DNA from: Candidatus Aenigmatarchaeota archaeon
Lineage (GTDB): Archaea; Aenigmatarchaeota; Aenigmatarchaeia; Aenigmatarchaeales; Aenigmatarchaeaceae
Direction: 5' to 3'
Assembly (NCBI GenBank): GCA_021163145.1
Contig: JAGGXH010000001.1
Coordinates: 1-32,666, forward strand
DNA: 32,666 bases
A program made the position numbers and the translations under genes. Under the pieces are notes generated by a model. The model made no database searches. It worked only from the letters and a program-made list of their open reading frames with translations, and was not told where the DNA came from. Below are positions 8,665 through 15,376 of the stretch, in pieces. How positions within the stretch are numbered: the first letter of the stretch is position 1; each line of letters begins with the position of its first letter.

Positions 8665-8982
8665 ATGGAAGCAAATATATGTGAAGAATTTTGGCAAAAA
8701 GTATATGAAATAAATAACAGAATATGGATAACTGCAAAATTCCCAAAACACATTGGGTGCTGGGAACTGTATCATAGTACAAAATCTTATCATATTCAAG
8801 GAACTTATCATAGCTTACTTGAATTAATTGAAGAATGTAAAAAATTAAATTGTAGAAATATTGAAATTGGTTATAATGGAAATTATTTTGAATTAAAAGA
8901 AATTAAAAAATCTATAATAGGTATTAAAAGAAGCATAATTTTATCAGACATATATATAGAACCTGCGTTATATCATGAATAA
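8665..8982 (+). CDS. Hypothetical protein
   Basis: 105 aa ORF with a strong SD (AGGTGA) filling the gap between genes. No family recognised. Confidence 0.7.
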   Translation: MEANICEEFWQKVYEINNRIWITAKFPKHIGCWELYHSTKSYHIQGTYHSLLELIEECKKLNCRNIEIGYNGNYFELKEIKKSIIGIKRSIILSDIYIEPALYHE

Positions 8983-8983
8983 A

Positions 8984-11900
8984 TTACTTAATCTCTATTG
9001 TTTTTCCAATAGAACCATTTCCAGAAAAATATAAATTTCCACCACATTTTGGACAACATCCACGCAATGGTGGCCTTCTATCAGACCAATGACATTTATT
9101 ACAAACAACCGCATCAAATGAGTTTAATACCATATCTTCTGGAGAAATTGGTTTAGTTCCAGAATTTATCATATCAAACAATGTTGTTTGTTTAGAACCT
9201 TCTAATAATTCTGATTGTGAAACACCACATGTTTCAAATATTCTTTCTAGTGGTGGCAATATTTGATTTTTAATATAATATTCAGAATCTATTTCTAAAT
9301 TTTTCTCTTTAATATAATTTGGATCTTCTGCTCTTCGTGAAACAAGCTCATTTCCTTTAATTATAACATAAGGCAAACGCTGACCAACCATACTACCAAC
9401 AGTTGGGTCTCTTTTAATAATTTTTTTAGCTAACTCAACATGTGGCTGAACATTATCATATTGATCGAGTGGTTTGGTTATTCCTTTTACAACAGCAAGA
9501 TCTTCAATTGGAATAAGTCCTTTATTTAAGTCATGTATAATTTTTCTAACATATTTAGCAGCTGCCTTTGTATCACCTTCCTTAAGAATTGTCTCAAGAA
9601 CTTTTTTCATTGTCTTTGTTGTTAATGGACACCAATCTCTTCTTACAACCTCAATTCCTTTAAATGCAATTTTATCTTTCCACCCATCTGCTCTTTTTTC
9701 AAATTGCCAACCTGCATATCTTTTTTTACTTAAAATTAAAAATGTTTTAAATGCTTTTTCAAACTCAAGCTCCATTCCCTCAAGTTTTTGTGTAATAAAT
9801 TTTGCCATTTCTTCTCCTTTCTTTGCAGCTTCTTCTAAATCTGTAATATCAGTCTTAACAAATACTGAGTCAGTATTATGTAATAATATTTGTCCACAAG
9901 AATCTACAAACATATGACTATTATCAACATTTAAGTCATAGACATATCCAGAATATTTTTCTACTTTTAATTTAGCATTTATAGATTTTCTATAATTAGA
10001 ACATGTTGTTATTCTATAAGTTTTTTTATTATAATCATACCTTATAGTATATTTTTGATTTAATTGATTTAATAAAAACGACAAACCGCATATTAAATGT
10101 AAAGATTTTGTGTCATATCTGAAATTTTCTTTTTTATATTTATTAGAATATCTTGCATCTGCCCATCTAGACCCATCTCCTTTTATCATATATTCTAACA
10201 AAAGTTCTTTATATTTCTGTGGAACATGATATATAAAATCTGGTAATTTCTTGTTTTTTGATTTTTGTCCACCAAGTATTTTGAAGAAAACCGCTGCTAA
10301 TTCATTTGTCATTTGTAATTTGTATGTTTTATCTTTATATATTATATTTTTTTCTTTGCCATTATTTGTTTTATATGTTAAATTTCTTGTTTTTTTAGTA
10401 GATCTTATTATAGATGCTTTAGAGTTTTTAAACAATCTCAAGTAATCTTGTTTTATTTGTTTTAGTAATTGTTTATCAGATGAACATATGCTTGCACACA
10501 TTTTATGCTTAGTTGTTTCTATTGTTGAAGCACTTCCCTCAGATATATATAATCCAAGCAATCTACACAATGATTCAAATTCTTTAGATCTGACATAAAT
10601 AAATCTTTTAAGTTTTATTCTTTTTTTCCTCTTTGTCCACCCAAACCAAACATAATTTTTATCTTTATGAATGCATGAAATTCTTTTTTTACCTTTATAA
10701 ACTGTTGTCTTTGAATAATGTTTCAATATTTCATACAAATCTATTTTATTAATTTGTTTAACATTTGGTATTTTATCTACTCTTATCATTGATTTGTTTA
10801 ACATTTCTTTAGGTTTTGATTCAACAAAATTTCCATTTTGTAATGTTATTAAAGAATGATCTTCTGTAACTATTGTTTCTCCAAACTTCTGGTTTACTCT
10901 ATATATTTTTTTGCTTGTTTTATGTCTTATTATTTCATTTATTTTTCTCCATACTGGTTTTTTTGTTTTAGGATCAACTGAAAGAACCTTTATGGTTCTT
11001 TCTGGTATCACTATTTCTTTTTCTCCTCTTCTAAATAAATTGTTCTTATGTTCTTGGAATAGTTCTTCTATGTTTTTTATTTTAACAATATTATTATCAA
11101 TAATTGTAACAAATCTATCTTTAGTAACACTATCACCGTAGATTACTTTATAACCAAAATTTTCTTCAACTAGTTTTTTTGTTACATCAATATTATATCT
11201 TCCCCAACCTGTTATTGATGCAGCAACTTCAGGTGTAAAAAATCTTGCACCAACAAAACCAATATAGCCCCATAATGAAACCAACATTCCTTTTAATGCA
11301 TATTGTTTTGCATCCAATAATTTAAGTATTTCTTCATTTGTTTCTTTTTTCATTAAATCTTTTACCTTAAATCTTGTATCAAAATAATATCTTGCAACAT
11401 ATGGAAATATTCCTTCTCTAATATTCTTTTTAACAAATTTTGCATTAACAGGAGAAACATAATAATCATCAGGGGATATGTTTTTCTCCTCTCTTAGCAA
11501 AGTACTTGGACATATATTATAATGCATTATCATAGAAGGATACATTGATTTAAAATCTAATACAAGAATATATCCATCTTTATGTAATCCAACATCTGGT
11601 TCCAAAACAGTTGCACCCTTAAATTTGTTCGATGCTCTAGCTTTTATTGTATTTCTATCTGGTTTACATGGCATTAGTATATTTCTTTTTTTAACTTCGT
11701 GAAGCAAAGCATTTTCATGTCTTGCAGATTGTCCTGCCATAAGATCCTGAAGAGTTAATCCAGATAACTTTGACATTTCTATAAATTTATCCATATCAAC
11801 AAGTTTATGACTTATTATTAGTTCCAATACTAAATCAGAATCTGTTTGACAATATTCTGCAATTTTAGTTATTTTGTTTATATCATTACTTTTCCAATAT

Positions 11901-12913
11901 TCAAGCATTTGATTGTGATTTAAATCTTTTTTACCTTTTCCCAACAATTGATTTGCAACTGTATCTAAATTAAATCTTCTGAATTTATGAGGTTGGTCAT
12001 AAACAGAAAGATATCTTATTATATAATAAGGATCTAATAAAAATCTTCCTGTGATTGCAGTTCTTTGTGTATAACTTAAATTCTTTGTCCATGCCTTTTT
12101 TTCTGCTCTACCAATATCTGTTGGAATATTATATAATTGCATTCTCTTTAAAATATATGGAACATCGAAATTCTCAATATTATAACCAGCTAAAACATCT
12201 GGATCAAAATCTATAATAATTTCTTTGAATTTTTCAAGCATTTGTTTTTCATCTGAACACACAATAGCATTACATGTCTTATTAATTTTCTTTGTGATAA
12301 GAACAAGTTGTTTCATATTCTTATATTCAGGATAAAAAGCCATTGATATCATGATTATAGGATCAAAATTAGCATCAGGCATTCTATATTCATCTGTTAT
12401 ACATTCTATATCAAATGATAAATATCGTAGAGGTGCATTTTTAACATTTTCAATTGATGTTATTTTCTTTGCTTGGATTGCCTTACATTTTACAGTTGTT
12501 GTTCTTATAAAATTTCCTTCCACATCTATCCATTTCATAGCTCTTAGACCAGCATCAACCATATATCTATATTTATAAAGAATATCAGCTTCATATGGTG
12601 TTCCTAAGTGTTTAACAGCATTTTTTATCTCAGGTATCTTAGCTGGATTAGTACCAATTATTTTAATTACTTTTTTTGGTTTTTCTGAATATCCAATTGG
12701 TAAATATTTTTCAACTATTTCTGTTTTTAATCCCATTTTTTCTAATTCATATAATGTATCATGAATATCATTTTTTGGATCCAAATAAAAATATGGTTTT
12801 GGTCCTTTTGTAAAAACACATATTGTATTACCTATAATATCTTTACAAAACAACCTAACTACTGGTCTATTGTCCAAAAGAACATAATCAACATCAAAAA
12901 TTTGTAGTTGCAT
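8984..12913 (-). CDS. polB: Family B DNA polymerase with a LAGLIDADG intein, PIP-like box and C-terminal DP2-like Zn finger
   Basis: ExoI FDIE, ExoII YNIENFD, ExoIII YCQTD, motif A DFKSMYPS, variant motif B KGMLVSLWG, motif C YGD|TDS split by the intein, KKRY and KGIEVVRRD. The tail has QTTLFDM and CNKC...CPKC. About 890 aa after splicing. Confidence 0.97.
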   Translation of the reverse strand: MQLQIFDVDYVLLDNRPVVRLFCKDIIGNTICVFTKGPKPYFYLDPKNDIHDTLYELEKMGLKTEIVEKYLPIGYSEKPKKVIKIIGTNPAKIPEIKNAVKHLGTPYEADILYKYRYMVDAGLRAMKWIDVEGNFIRTTTVKCKAIQAKKITSIENVKNAPLRYLSFDIECITDEYRMPDANFDPIIMISMAFYPEYKNMKQLVLITKKINKTCNAIVCSDEKQMLEKFKEIIIDFDPDVLAGYNIENFDVPYILKRMQLYNIPTDIGRAEKKAWTKNLSYTQRTAITGRFLLDPYYIIRYLSVYDQPHKFRRFNLDTVANQLLGKGKKDLNHNQMLEYWKSNDINKITKIAEYCQTDSDLVLELIISHKLVDMDKFIEMSKLSGLTLQDLMAGQSARHENALLHEVKKRNILMPCKPDRNTIKARASNKFKGATVLEPDVGLHKDGYILVLDFKSMYPSMIMHYNICPSTLLREEKNISPDDYYVSPVNAKFVKKNIREGIFPYVARYYFDTRFKVKDLMKKETNEEILKLLDAKQYALKGMLVSLWGYIGFVGARFFTPEVAASITGWGRYNIDVTKKLVEENFGYKVIYGDSVTKDRFVTIIDNNIVKIKNIEELFQEHKNNLFRRGEKEIVIPERTIKVLSVDPKTKKPVWRKINEIIRHKTSKKIYRVNQKFGETIVTEDHSLITLQNGNFVESKPKEMLNKSMIRVDKIPNVKQINKIDLYEILKHYSKTTVYKGKKRISCIHKDKNYVWFGWTKRKKRIKLKRFIYVRSKEFESLCRLLGLYISEGSASTIETTKHKMCASICSSDKQLLKQIKQDYLRLFKNSKASIIRSTKKTRNLTYKTNNGKEKNIIYKDKTYKLQMTNELAAVFFKILGGQKSKNKKLPDFIYHVPQKYKELLLEYMIKGDGSRWADARYSNKYKKENFRYDTKSLHLICGLSFLLNQLNQKYTIRYDYNKKTYRITTCSNYRKSINAKLKVEKYSGYVYDLNVDNSHMFVDSCGQILLHNTDSVFVKTDITDLEEAAKKGEEMAKFITQKLEGMELEFEKAFKTFLILSKKRYAGWQFEKRADGWKDKIAFKGIEVVRRDWCPLTTKTMKKVLETILKEGDTKAAAKYVRKIIHDLNKGLIPIEDLAVVKGITKPLDQYDNVQPHVELAKKIIKRDPTVGSMVGQRLPYVIIKGNELVSRRAEDPNYIKEKNLEIDSEYYIKNQILPPLERIFETCGVSQSELLEGSKQTTLFDMINSGTKPISPEDMVLNSFDAVVCNKCHWSDRRPPLRGCCPKCGGNLYFSGNGSIGKTIEIK
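9875..11131 (-). mobile_element. Intein (419 aa) with LAGLIDADG homing endonuclease in PolB motif C
   Basis: Begins SVTKDRF after YGD. Block B TEDH, endonuclease motifs LLGLYISEG and YMIKGDG, block F VYDLNV, ends LLHN before the +1 Thr of TDS. Confidence 0.96.
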
Positions 12914-12961: not shown

Positions 12962-13855
12962 CTATATATCCATTATTTCTCTGTTTCTTAAATTAATCTG
13001 TTTATTTAACGAAACAATACTAATTCCTTTATAATTTTTATTTATTGATTCATTGAAAACAATATCTGGAACAACATCTAATAGAAAATCAGTATTATTT
13101 ATAGAAATATATCTCTTTCTTAACAATTCAAGAGCATTATATCCAATAACAATAAGAATATTTATACCATTAATTTCAAATAAACTAACTGGCTTATTTA
13201 CAAAGTATGCATTATTAACATTCTTGTCCTCTAGAATAAATGTAAAGTCAGATTTTACATCTGGATTAAATTTTTCTGAAAAAGAAACAATAATATCATT
13301 ACTACTTAAAATTGGAACTCTTAAAGGAACATCAGGAAACATAATTTCATTTACATGAAAAATATTGTCAGAATAATAACCATTTAGAGCAATTACATCA
13401 TCAAACTTTATCTTATCCAAATAGTCTTTTGATAAACTACAATTTATCATACCTGTTTGATCTTCTACTTCAATAAATAATTCTGTATTACTAGAATCAA
13501 TTGTTTTTATCATACCTATTATAGAACATTTTGTACCATTAGATAATTTGTTTATTGAAATTAAATTGGTTATCTGGGTTTTATTAACCAATATTTGTTT
13601 TAAAAAAGCAAATCTATCATTTATTTGTTTTATAAAGTCATCTATTGTATATTTTTTTATTATTTCAAATTCTTTTATTTTCTTAAAATTAACTTGTCTT
13701 ATATATGAATCAATAATTTCTTGTGTTAATACTAATGGTCTATATTCTTTTGCTTTAGTTATAACTAATTTAATGTCATTTTTGCTCATTTTTTCCAATT
13801 TAGAGAGAGCTTCTGGCTCTATTAAAATACCAGAACCTTTTAATTCCTCTAACAT
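12962..13855 (-). CDS. Inactivated, shortened homologue of PolD small subunit DP1 (B-subunit-like)
   Basis: DP1-like segments in order: N-terminal 'GILIEPEAL', 'IDDFI...DRF..LK.IL', OB fold 'IIGMI...EVEDQTG...DDVIAL.G...FPDVP', 'LELLRKRYI', 'VPDIVF' and 'YKGI'. No phosphoesterase DxH, GD, GNHD or GHxH motifs. 297 aa; overlaps the cdc6 stop. Confidence 0.8.
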   Translation of the reverse strand: MLEELKGSGILIEPEALSKLEKMSKNDIKLVITKAKEYRPLVLTQEIIDSYIRQVNFKKIKEFEIIKKYTIDDFIKQINDRFAFLKQILVNKTQITNLISINKLSNGTKCSIIGMIKTIDSSNTELFIEVEDQTGMINCSLSKDYLDKIKFDDVIALNGYYSDNIFHVNEIMFPDVPLRVPILSSNDIIVSFSEKFNPDVKSDFTFILEDKNVNNAYFVNKPVSLFEINGINILIVIGYNALELLRKRYISINNTDFLLDVVPDIVFNESINKNYKGISIVSLNKQINLRNREIMDI

Positions 13856-15054
13856 AAAAATATCTGCCCCAACATCTTTTTTAACTTTTCTTCAGTTTCA
13901 TTATTTATATTCAATGAAATAAGCTTGGTTCTCCCATATCTGCCTCTCGATACAACCTTACTGTTTAAAATACCGAATAAAACAAGCTCATTTATTAAAT
14001 CAGATATTCTTCTTGACGTTAATTGTTTTAAACCATTTTTAACACAAATTTCTTTATATTTATCTAGAATATCTGAAGTTTCTATATATCTCTTTTCTAA
14101 ATTCAAAATAGACCATAAAACAGCTTGGCTTTGTTTAGGCTGTGATTTAACAACTTCAATTATTCTATCAACATCTATTTTATCTTCTGCAGCATCAATA
14201 TCTTCTATAGATACTTTTGATTTAAGCTTTCTTTCAGCTATTTCACCTGCAACTCTTAATAGATCTAAAGCTCTTCTTGCATCACCATGCTCTTGTGCAG
14301 CTAATGCAGCACATTTTTCAATTACCCCATCTTCTAAAACATTTGGCATAAATGCTATCTCTGCTCTTTGTCTCAATATATCCTGTAATTGTATTGCATT
14401 ATATGGAGGAAATACAATTTCTTCTTCAGATAATGAACTTCTAACTCTTGGATCTAATTTTTCTATAAAATCAAGATTATTAGTAATTCCAATAATTGTT
14501 AACCTAGAATTTTTAAGATCTTCATTAATTCTAGTTAGATTATATAGTATCTCATCACCTGTTTTTTGAACTAATGTATCTATTTCATCTATTATAAGAA
14601 TAACTGTTTGGCTTTCAGAATCAAGTGCTTTAAAGAAAATATTATATATTTGATCTGTTGGCAAACCAGTAAAAGGTACATCATAACCAAATTCTCTAGA
14701 TAAACCAGCCAATAATCTATACTCAGTATCTGCTGATTTCTTCATCTTACAATTAATATATAATGTTTTTACATTAAACCCATTTATATGAGCTGCTTTC
14801 TCTAATTCAGATGTTACCATTTTAGCTAAACATGTTTTTCCTGTACCTGTTCTACCATAAATAAAAATATTACTTGGTCTTCCACCTTTTAATGCAGGTG
14901 CTAATATTCTACCAAGCTCATTTGTTTGTTCATCTCTATGTGGAATCTCCCTAGGAGTAAATGATATTGTTAATACTTGTCTGTTTGCAAATATTGGTTT
15001 ATTTTCTAAAAACTTATTAAATATATTTTGAATATCTGCCATTGGAATCACCAT
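13849..15054 (-). CDS. cdc6: Orc1/Cdc6 replication initiator
   Basis: Walker A GRTGTGKT, Walker B IIDEID, 'LDPRVRSSL', 'FPPYNA.QL..IL', 'HGDARRALDLLR' and a C-terminal winged helix with GRYGRT. The true start may be the ATG at 15042, which has SD GGTGAT. Confidence 0.97.
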   Translation of the reverse strand: MVIPMADIQNIFNKFLENKPIFANRQVLTISFTPREIPHRDEQTNELGRILAPALKGGRPSNIFIYGRTGTGKTCLAKMVTSELEKAAHINGFNVKTLYINCKMKKSADTEYRLLAGLSREFGYDVPFTGLPTDQIYNIFFKALDSESQTVILIIDEIDTLVQKTGDEILYNLTRINEDLKNSRLTIIGITNNLDFIEKLDPRVRSSLSEEEIVFPPYNAIQLQDILRQRAEIAFMPNVLEDGVIEKCAALAAQEHGDARRALDLLRVAGEIAERKLKSKVSIEDIDAAEDKIDVDRIIEVVKSQPKQSQAVLWSILNLEKRYIETSDILDKYKEICVKNGLKQLTSRRISDLINELVLFGILNSKVVSRGRYGRTKLISLNINNETEEKLKKMLGQIFLC

Positions 15055-15097
15055 TTTTTCTTATGGAATATATACATGTTACCACATATAAGCTTGT

Positions 15098-15157
15098 CTT
15101 CACGTTACCCCCTTATTTCCCATGGAACTTCACGTTACCCTATTGTTTCCAATAGAA
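15098..15157. repeat. Two tandem 30-bp ORB-containing units
   Basis: cttcacgttacccccttatttcccatggaa followed by cttcacgttaccctattgtttccaatagaa. A partial third copy, cttcatattacc, lies at 15169-15180. Confidence 0.9.
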
Positions 15158-15376
15158 GTTAACAAAACCTTCATATTACCATATAATTTATCATATTTCC
15201 ATTAGAAACCATACCACCAATATTTCCATTGGAAATAATATTTATGATACGAACCAATTATTTTTCTAGTGGAAATCAGATTAAAGACATAATATCCTAT
15301 AACAGTGTTATAATAATATATAATATCTATATATGAAATAAAAACATAAAATAATTTTTCCATTGGAAAACTAGGG
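15098..15376. other. Probable replication origin (oriC) with ORB elements and an AT-rich unwinding tract
   Basis: TTTCCAnTGGAAA-like cores at about 15117, 15146, 15196, 15223, 15263 and 15357. The first two carry G-strings on the minus strand (GTTCCATGGGAAATAAGGGGG). The last carries one on the plus strand (TTCCATTGGAAAACTAGGG). AT-rich tract about 15308-15356. Directly upstream of cdc6. Confidence 0.92.

Follow-up and report, generated by a model that had tools for sequence, protein, structure and literature searches.

The family B DNA polymerase (PolB) encoded in a 32,666-nucleotide stretch of Candidatus Aenigmatarchaeota archaeon DNA (assembly GCA_021163145.1, contig JAGGXH010000001.1, positions 1 to 32,666 of the forward strand; hereafter the window) ends in a short cysteine ribbon that is homologous to the Zn-III module of DP2, the large subunit of the archaeal polymerase PolD, while the gene directly upstream encodes a reduced protein of the DP1 type. 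Our preferred reading, to which we assign a probability of roughly 0.85, is that the ribbon is a DP2 Zn-III-derived plug through which PolB would dock onto this reduced and dead DP1, and that the two proteins together would form a two-subunit replicase. The DP2-type tail of PolB is real and was correctly read in a preliminary description of this DNA, and its combination with an inactivated DP1 is already known.

The proposed arrangement can be laid out as follows. A ribbon of about 42 residues, homologous to Zn-III, is fused behind a PCNA-interacting protein (PIP)-like box at the end of a proofreading PolB. The ribbon would serve as a docking plug, placing its RRPPL loop and its C-terminal strand into a groove on the side of the oligonucleotide/oligosaccharide-binding (OB) fold of the upstream-encoded DP1-like protein. 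The outcome would be a replicase of eukaryotic style, in which catalysis falls to PolB and the B subunit beside it is non-catalytic. PolB would carry out both synthesis and proofreading, as its exonuclease motifs are present, and the dead DP1-like subunit would provide a scaffold; it may also link PolB to other parts of the replisome such as GINS/CMG, for which work on canonical DP1 (PMC9023282) is the sole pointer. The features on which the argument turns are these:

8984..12913, minus strand: family B DNA polymerase gene, 1309 amino acids including an intein, stop codon within the coordinates (Pfam DNA_pol_B 5.8e-99, DNA_pol_B_exo1 1.1e-35)
9167..9190, minus strand: PIP-like box QTTLFDMI, PolB residues 1242-1249 (translation)
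8993..9118, minus strand: DP2 Zn-III-like module FDAVVCNKCHWSDRRPPLRGCCPKCGGNLYFSGNGSIGKTIE (FDAVVC...GKTIE), PolB residues 1266-1307, about 42 residues (translation)
12962..13855, minus strand: reduced DP1 or B-subunit-like protein, 297 amino acids (phmmer, profile, AlphaFold2 (AF2) model and structure comparison)

The PolB tail and the DP2 Zn-III module

Translation of the final 80 residues of PolB, which end ...KQTTLFDMINSGTKPISPEDMVLNSFDAVVCNKCHWSDRRPPLRGCCPKCGGNLYFSGNGSIGKTIEIK, bears out the order given in the preliminary description: a PIP-like box, a linker of 21 amino acids and a Cys4 ribbon, CNKCHWSDRRPPLRGCCPKCGG. The box is thus internal to the protein, with the first cysteine 21 residues further on. 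Cysteines 1271, 1274, 1287 and 1290 are the putative ligands of a metal that, from homology to Zn-III, is presumably zinc. The module includes the RRPPL loop (R1279, R1280 and L1283), followed by two strands, LYF and GKTIE.

This layout recurs among relatives. With the C-terminal 160 amino acids of PolB as the query, 147 of 378 candidates were homologues at E<=1e-3, and 120 of them are listed. Each of these 120 has the Cys4 pattern, a strict pattern of a basic pair plus PL fits 89, and a PIP-like box of the form Q-x-x-[LIMF]-x-x-hydrophobic-hydrophobic stands upstream in 109. Spacing is likewise held within limits, with 17-34 residues from the PIP-like box to the first cysteine and 18-36 after the last in all 120. 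An aromatic residue occupies position 7 or 8 of the box in only 12 of the 109, and an aliphatic one (QxxLxxIL and similar) in the other 97; the gain of the tail may have been followed by weaker PCNA binding by the box. The tail homologues that carry organism names include nine from Aenigmarchaeota or Aenigmatarchaeota and two from Micrarchaeota among those listed, and the C-terminal 160 amino acids are 45-68% identical to PolBs named Aenigmarchaeota or Aenigmatarchaeota. Across an alignment of 32 diverse PolB tails, from which we built a profile (the tail profile), the four cysteines and the leucine of RRPPL are invariant. Besides the cysteine ligands, the most conserved positions of the tail are L1283 and G1285, both in the loop that would dock on DP1.

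Sequence comparison places this ribbon with DP2. The preliminary description gave the DP2 motif as CxKCxxxxRRxPLxGxCxxCGG, and both the window tail and the solved DP2 chains fit it at all specified positions. Identity reaches beyond the cysteine ligands to RRPPLxG and then to a strand of the form G-x-[LI]-x-[FL]...G-[ST]-I-x-K. When the 80-residue tail is compared by phmmer with all sequences in the PDB, the top three matches are DP2 chains (Thermococcus kodakarensis 6knb_B at 8.1e-5, Pyrococcus abyssi 6hms_B and 6t8h_B at 1.7e-3), and the next match stands at 0.46. The phmmer alignment covers DP2 residues of about 1122-1164 and sets R1279 and R1280 of the window PolB against R1131 and R1132 of DP2; with the tail profile also considered, RRPPL falls within an alignment to DP2 1119-1160. 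The tail profile sharpens the result, matching DP2 at 1.1e-10, 1e-9 and 1.1e-9, with a CTCF zinc finger next at 1.5e-3. Generic zinc ribbons as the best matches had been named beforehand as the outcome that would tell against DP2; because DP2 tops the profile search and ribbons begin only at 1.5e-3, that objection falls away. In the same search, no C-terminal domain (CTD) of Pol alpha, delta, epsilon or zeta is among the tail-profile matches in the PDB at E<=10, and we dropped a direct sequence link to the eukaryotic CTDs for this reason.

Structure prediction agrees with these comparisons and shows how little of DP2 is present. The AF2 model of the tail (pLDDT 87.6) shows strands beside the ribbon and a single three-residue helical turn, with no helical bundle. 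With this model as the query, the top three Foldseek places go to P. abyssi DP2, with a root-mean-square deviation (rmsd) of 0.6 Å and 45% identity over 31 columns, at an E of 0.011 that is weak when taken alone. Only the ribbon and the next strand are common to a DP2 from within the phylum (GNLVLTVSEGTISKYLE) and the PolB tail (GNLYFSGNGSIGKTIE); the flanking helices and terminal PIP of that DP2 are absent from the tail. The in-phylum DP2 continues for 42-54 residues beyond the matched region, while the window PolB has only 19 residues after its last cysteine. In-phylum DP2 proteins score 39.9-45 bits with the tail profile and Thermococcales DP2 proteins 41-44 bits, and since the former score no better, no local donor is indicated. 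Taken together, the sequence comparisons support the tail as a homologue of DP2 Zn-III.

The putative DP1-like partner and the distribution of both proteins

The gene for the 297-residue DP1-like protein lies upstream of PolB on the same strand, 48 nucleotides away, and its product combines helices at the N-terminus with an OB fold and a trimmed phosphodiesterase (PDE) scaffold. Its kinship with DP1 is seen by several routes. Its phmmer match to P. abyssi DP1 spans residues 9-178 (2e-12), and a 100-row profile of DP1-like proteins, 7 canonical DP1 rows among them, matches DP1 at 3.4e-48, subunit 2 of Pol epsilon at 2e-5 and subunit 2 of Pol delta at 2.9e-5. The AF2 model (pLDDT 95.7, pTM 0.86) finds DP1 by Foldseek at 4.5e-17. 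In VIA-align, residues 56-297 of the model superpose on residues 196-612 of DP1 6t8h_A with a Z of 19.4 and an rmsd of 3.1 Å over 242 aligned residues, and eukaryotic B subunits (p50, Pol alpha B and Pol epsilon subunit 2) give a Z of 15-17.

By the alignments, the PDE domain is reduced by about half. The canonical columns D, GD, GNHD, H, H and GHxH, as defined by the 7 DP1 rows, are replaced by K195, a gap, a gap, I237, Y249 and gap/N268. Judged by its sequence, the 297-residue protein is catalytically dead, every PDE catalytic column being substituted or deleted. Acidic residues E131, D132, D152, D175 and D264 are retained across the short, middle-length and canonical forms of DP1. Reduced forms are common: an exhaustive search for DP1-like relatives gave 514 matches at E<=1e-3, and among the 150 of these that are listed most have 255-400 amino acids, with the best full-length matches at 282-325.

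We also considered whether the 297-residue protein is one fragment of a split DP1, and rejected this. Only 48 nucleotides separate it from PolB, leaving no room for a second open reading frame (ORF). Forms of about 300 amino acids recur, both among the top matches (282-325 amino acids) and as frames from the same family (303-353 amino acids), and the model is compact, with its pLDDT of 95.7.

A predicted complex suggests how tail and partner may meet. The input comprised the 297-residue protein, a 61-residue tail and Zn, and three controls were run. The complex model reached an ipSAE of 0.82 (0.82, 0.79 and 0.82 in separate runs), against 0.00 for the best of the three controls; the mark that this score had to pass admits 58 of 80 solved complexes and 2 of 110 mismatched pairs. 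At least 97% of the contacts are common to the runs, and the pLDDT of the partner is 86. On the tail side the contacts fall, in the numbering of the 61-residue construct, at R31-G37 (RRPPLRG), L46-F48 (LYF) and G55-K61 (GKTIEIK). On the DP1-like side they fall at residues 65-82, 115, 117, 131-133 (E-D-Q), 151-152 and 253-254, the PDE remnant contributing only 253-254. The model supports binding, and the tail is predicted to dock on the 297-residue DP1-like protein. The predicted placement resembles that of PolD, in which, as Raia et al. (2019, PMC6355029) describe, the Zn-III loop of DP2 with R1131 and R1132 (KxRRxP) docks in an electronegative groove between the OB and PDE domains of DP1. The same paper cites a 20-residue Zn-III peptide that binds DP1 with nanomolar affinity.

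The distribution of these proteins over genomes points the same way. The genome from which the window comes (725,527 bases, 68 contigs, 93.54% complete) gives no match for the DP2 N domain, PF03833, and likewise none for PF04042. In a phylum sample of 201 genomes, this one included, the tail profile matches 196 and the DP1-like profile 197; DP2 is present in 9. The carriers of DP2 are all 8 genomes of a single family (f11) and 1 of the 42 genomes of another (f16). Members of f11 have a full PolD (for example G097:C8, G059:C59 and G005:C12), with a DP2 of 1108-1605 amino acids in which both a Zn-III and a terminal PIP are present. In all five f11 genomes examined, the best match to the tail profile lies inside the DP2 frame, and their PolBs are tail-less and about 32% identical to P0003, an intein-less PolB homologue that we used as the reference for the PolB core and the intein limits. 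Four of these five PolBs are complete (762-783 amino acids), with a QxxLxxF PIP box as their terminus; the fifth is truncated where its contig stops and has the same ending. The DP1 frames of f11 measure 460-523 amino acids (7 genomes listed), compared with 292-452 amino acids in the listed rows from other families. The motif is therefore found in either DP2 or the PolB C-terminus, and where it stands at the PolB C-terminus it goes together with a shortened DP1. Family f11, with PolD and a tail-less PolB, thus offers a natural comparison group for the replacement.

The single carrier in f16 (G090) has its DP2 beside a second DP1 on a 3-kb contig (C64, 3058 nucleotides), and elsewhere it has a tail-bearing PolB and a reduced DP1. 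The contig with DP2 and DP1 may be a binning error.

Gene order was compared in 20 genomes, hand-picked across about 17 families and not a random sample. A DP1-like ORF lies upstream of the tail-bearing PolB and on the same strand in 15 of the 20. The gap between the two is at most 153 nucleotides in 12 of these 15 and 0.5-2.1 kb in the other 3.

The PolB core, its intein and flanking genes

Exonuclease and polymerase motifs are present in PolB: FDIEC (Exo I), DFKSMYP (motif A) and YGD|TDS (motif C). In the PDB, human Pol delta is the best match of P0003 (3.8e-110), with Thermococcales PolB matched at about 1e-100. Two further features lie within and beside the polymerase gene:

9875..11131, minus strand: intein with a LAGLIDADG endonuclease, 419 amino acids, PolB S595-N1013 (Pfam Intein_splicing 4.6e-10, LAGLIDADG_3 5.3e-7)
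13849..15054, minus strand: Orc1/Cdc6 initiator gene (Pfam Cdc6_lid 1.5e-25, Cdc6_C 3.8e-22, AAA 2e-13)

Comparison with P0003 together with the translation sets the limits of the intein, which splits motif C (YGD|TDS) and is followed by T1014 as the +1 residue. Nine of the 120 listed PolB homologues have a length of 1303-1387 amino acids, and each of the nine carries the Pfam intein-splicing domain. Motif B of the window PolB, within residues 534-593, reads KGMLVSLWG, where most relatives have KxxxNSLYG, so that asparagine is changed to valine and tyrosine to tryptophan. Among the 91 homologues in which the motif could be detected by pattern, the valine variant occurs in 8 and the tryptophan in 2.

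The genome holds two additional PolB-like genes. One encodes 375 amino acids on contig C65 (L002 1441-2568, minus strand); its product consists of the polymerase domain only (Pfam 3.6e-51), keeps YADTDS, is without the exonuclease part, and has a TAA just upstream. The other is a very divergent ORF of 877 amino acids on contig C27 (L004 127-2760, plus strand), which scored 26 bits in the genome search and whose protein is without a Pfam match; it possibly originates from a mobile element.

The Orc1/Cdc6 gene comes first in a co-directional row, followed by the DP1-like gene and PolB. In the intergenic region upstream of it, 15039-15369, a palindromic box occurs five or six times (AATATTTCCATTGGAAA at 15219-15235 and AATTTTTCCATTGGAAA at 15353-15369 are two of the copies), and the same region holds a tandem 30-nucleotide pair at 15098-15157. 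Because the palindromic boxes resemble archaeal origin recognition boxes, the region is probably the replication origin, immediately beside this gene row. On the other side of PolB, an ORF of 105 amino acids (8665-8982, plus strand) without a Pfam match is convergent with the polymerase gene and ends 1 base short of its stop codon.

Alternative readings and known systems

Several points weigh against a Zn-III-derived plug that docks PolB onto the DP1-like protein. Foldseek returned no match for the tail model at E<=1e-3, and Pfam gave only sub-threshold generic matches for the 80-residue tail (DUF1272 at 0.0021, CpXC, HypA and PADR1); as these matches are weak and below cut-off, the tail is left without a curated family name. 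The complex prediction may have passed by recall of solved PolD structures, in which case it would attest to likeness and not amount to proof, and its score was calibrated without riding Zn or user-supplied alignments. The helices of DP2 that also touch DP1 are missing from the PolB tail. The absence of DP2 from the window's own genome rests on a draft of 68 contigs. Finally, 5 of the 20 genomes compared for gene order have no DP1-like gene beside PolB in the stretch that was fetched, although 4 of these 5 have one elsewhere in the genome.

The history of the tail is where an alternative has most to say. The preliminary description held that the module had been captured from DP2 by a PolB, and the phylum distribution and the published reading speak for this, but only the ribbon and the next strand are shared, and a reduced full CTD is therefore no less possible than the capture of just the finger. 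Under this alternative, the tail would be what erosion has left of a complete DP2-type CTD, with its helical bundle and Zn, that was inherited with the PolB lineage, its source being, for example, a mobile element or some relative of the PolB3-DP2CTD of Baldrarchaeia (Asgard). Docking on DP1 would be unchanged and the history would differ. We regard such erosion as plausible, at somewhat less than even odds. It fits the best score of the PolB core against Pol delta, the lack of an indicated local donor when in-phylum and Thermococcales DP2 are scored with the tail profile, and the joint absence of the tail helices and the matching PDE loops, which co-erosion predicts. It also fits a 2025 paper (Nat Ecol Evol, PMC12680538), which in its treatment of Aenigmatarchaeota terms the CTD 'degenerate' and 'shorter' and places their PolB near the Baldrarchaeial PolB3. 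Kazlauskas et al. (NAR 2020, PMC7544198), on the other hand, favour direct acquisition of the DP2 Zn-III by recombination, and helices flanking the ribbon are untraceable in any of the 120 listed homologues.

Whichever history applies, the ribbon might have another job. If the Zn module chiefly bound DNA or a partner such as PCNA, primase or GINS in place of the DP1-like protein, the retention of basic residues in the tail (K1273, R1279, R1280, R1284 and K1289) would find an explanation, as would the genomes, 5 of 20, in which the DP1-like gene is unlinked from PolB. We think this improbable. The complex model favours DP1-like binding over controls at 0.00, and the residues best conserved besides the cysteines, L1283 and G1285, belong to the loop that would dock on DP1. 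For this phylum, moreover, binding of DP1 to PolB-DP2CTD has been published, with yeast two-hybrid and AlphaFold3 results (PMC12680538). A DP1-like protein that is dead in the window and nonetheless kept in 197 of 201 genomes would also need a reason. Still more improbable, to the point that we give it very little weight, is that a zinc ribbon of generic type came to look like DP2 by convergence or chance. Zn ribbons are short and common, and neither Pfam nor Foldseek makes a significant assignment; against this, seven orders of magnitude separate DP2 from the next PDB match of the profile, identity reaches beyond the cysteine ligands, and PolBs are tail-less in the DP2-bearing genomes examined and tail-bearing across the rest of the phylum sample.

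If the docking of a DP2-derived ribbon on a reduced DP1 is accepted, a bolder proposal can be made, which we offer tentatively and consider rather unlikely. The pair might represent the smallest natural contact of the eukaryotic type that joins a B subunit to its catalytic subunit: a ribbon of 42 residues and a B subunit of 297, with the PDE domain halved and both sides of the contact between helices and PDE lost together, its place taken by a GKTIEIK strand that would pair with residues 67-72 of the DP1-like protein and by RRPPL in the OB groove. Were this true and undescribed, it would define the minimal determinants of the interface and provide a compact system for structural work. The degree to which the partner is reduced may not be in print, although items S10, S15 and S16 of Kazlauskas et al. 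(2020) may already show a reduced DP1; the apparent joint loss of the helices from the tail and of the PDE loops that they would touch may likewise not be in print.

The closest known system is the group to which, by its sequence, the window PolB belongs. Kazlauskas et al. (2020, PMC7544198) named such polymerases of Aenigmarchaeota "B6-aenigma1", and report that DP2 is absent in most Aenigmarchaeota and that DP1 is inactivated. As that paper describes the group, it shares with the window a proofreading PolB with a single Cys4 CTD nearest to DP2 Zn-III, and a genome without DP2 in which an inactivated DP1 stands alongside. Nothing essential differs. The window copy has an intein in motif C and the changes of asparagine to valine and tyrosine to tryptophan in motif B, and its DP1 partner, at 297 amino acids, is among the shorter ones in the range. 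As the feature has been in print since 2020, the window represents one more member; it adds counts over the phylum that agree with the papers, together with a view of the extent to which DP1 can be reduced.

In PolD itself, known from P. abyssi and T. kodakarensis (6HMS, 6T8H and 6KNB), the DP2 CTD sits on DP1 through the Zn-III ribbon, the RRxPL loop and the strand that follows, all of which are also found here, and it docks on the OB side of the DP1 fold, as is predicted for the window pair. The differences lie in what surrounds this contact. The catalytic subunit in the window is a PolB and not the two-barrel DP2, its tail is without the Zn-III-flanking helices alpha1' and alpha3' and the terminal PIP, and the partner retains none of the PDE catalytic residues and only about half of the PDE domain. 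The PolB3-DP2CTD of Baldrarchaeia, as the 2025 paper (PMC12680538) presents it, likewise joins a PolB to a DP2-derived C-terminus in a lineage without DP2 and with DP1. Its CTD is of full length and eukaryote-like, whereas that of Aenigmatarchaeota, the window's included, is shorter.

Eukaryotic Pol alpha, delta and epsilon follow the same design, with a PolB catalytic subunit, a C-terminal metal module and an inactive DP1 homologue as the B subunit. The eukaryotic CTD differs in having two modules, CysA and CysB, where the window PolB has one Cys4 module and no helical bundle. A PolB docked on an inactive DP1 by a DP2-derived finger would thus be an archaeal parallel of the Pol alpha, delta and epsilon design. 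This parallel, recognised in print since 2020 and followed by a binding test in 2025, bears on the origin of the chimeric replicases of eukaryotes.

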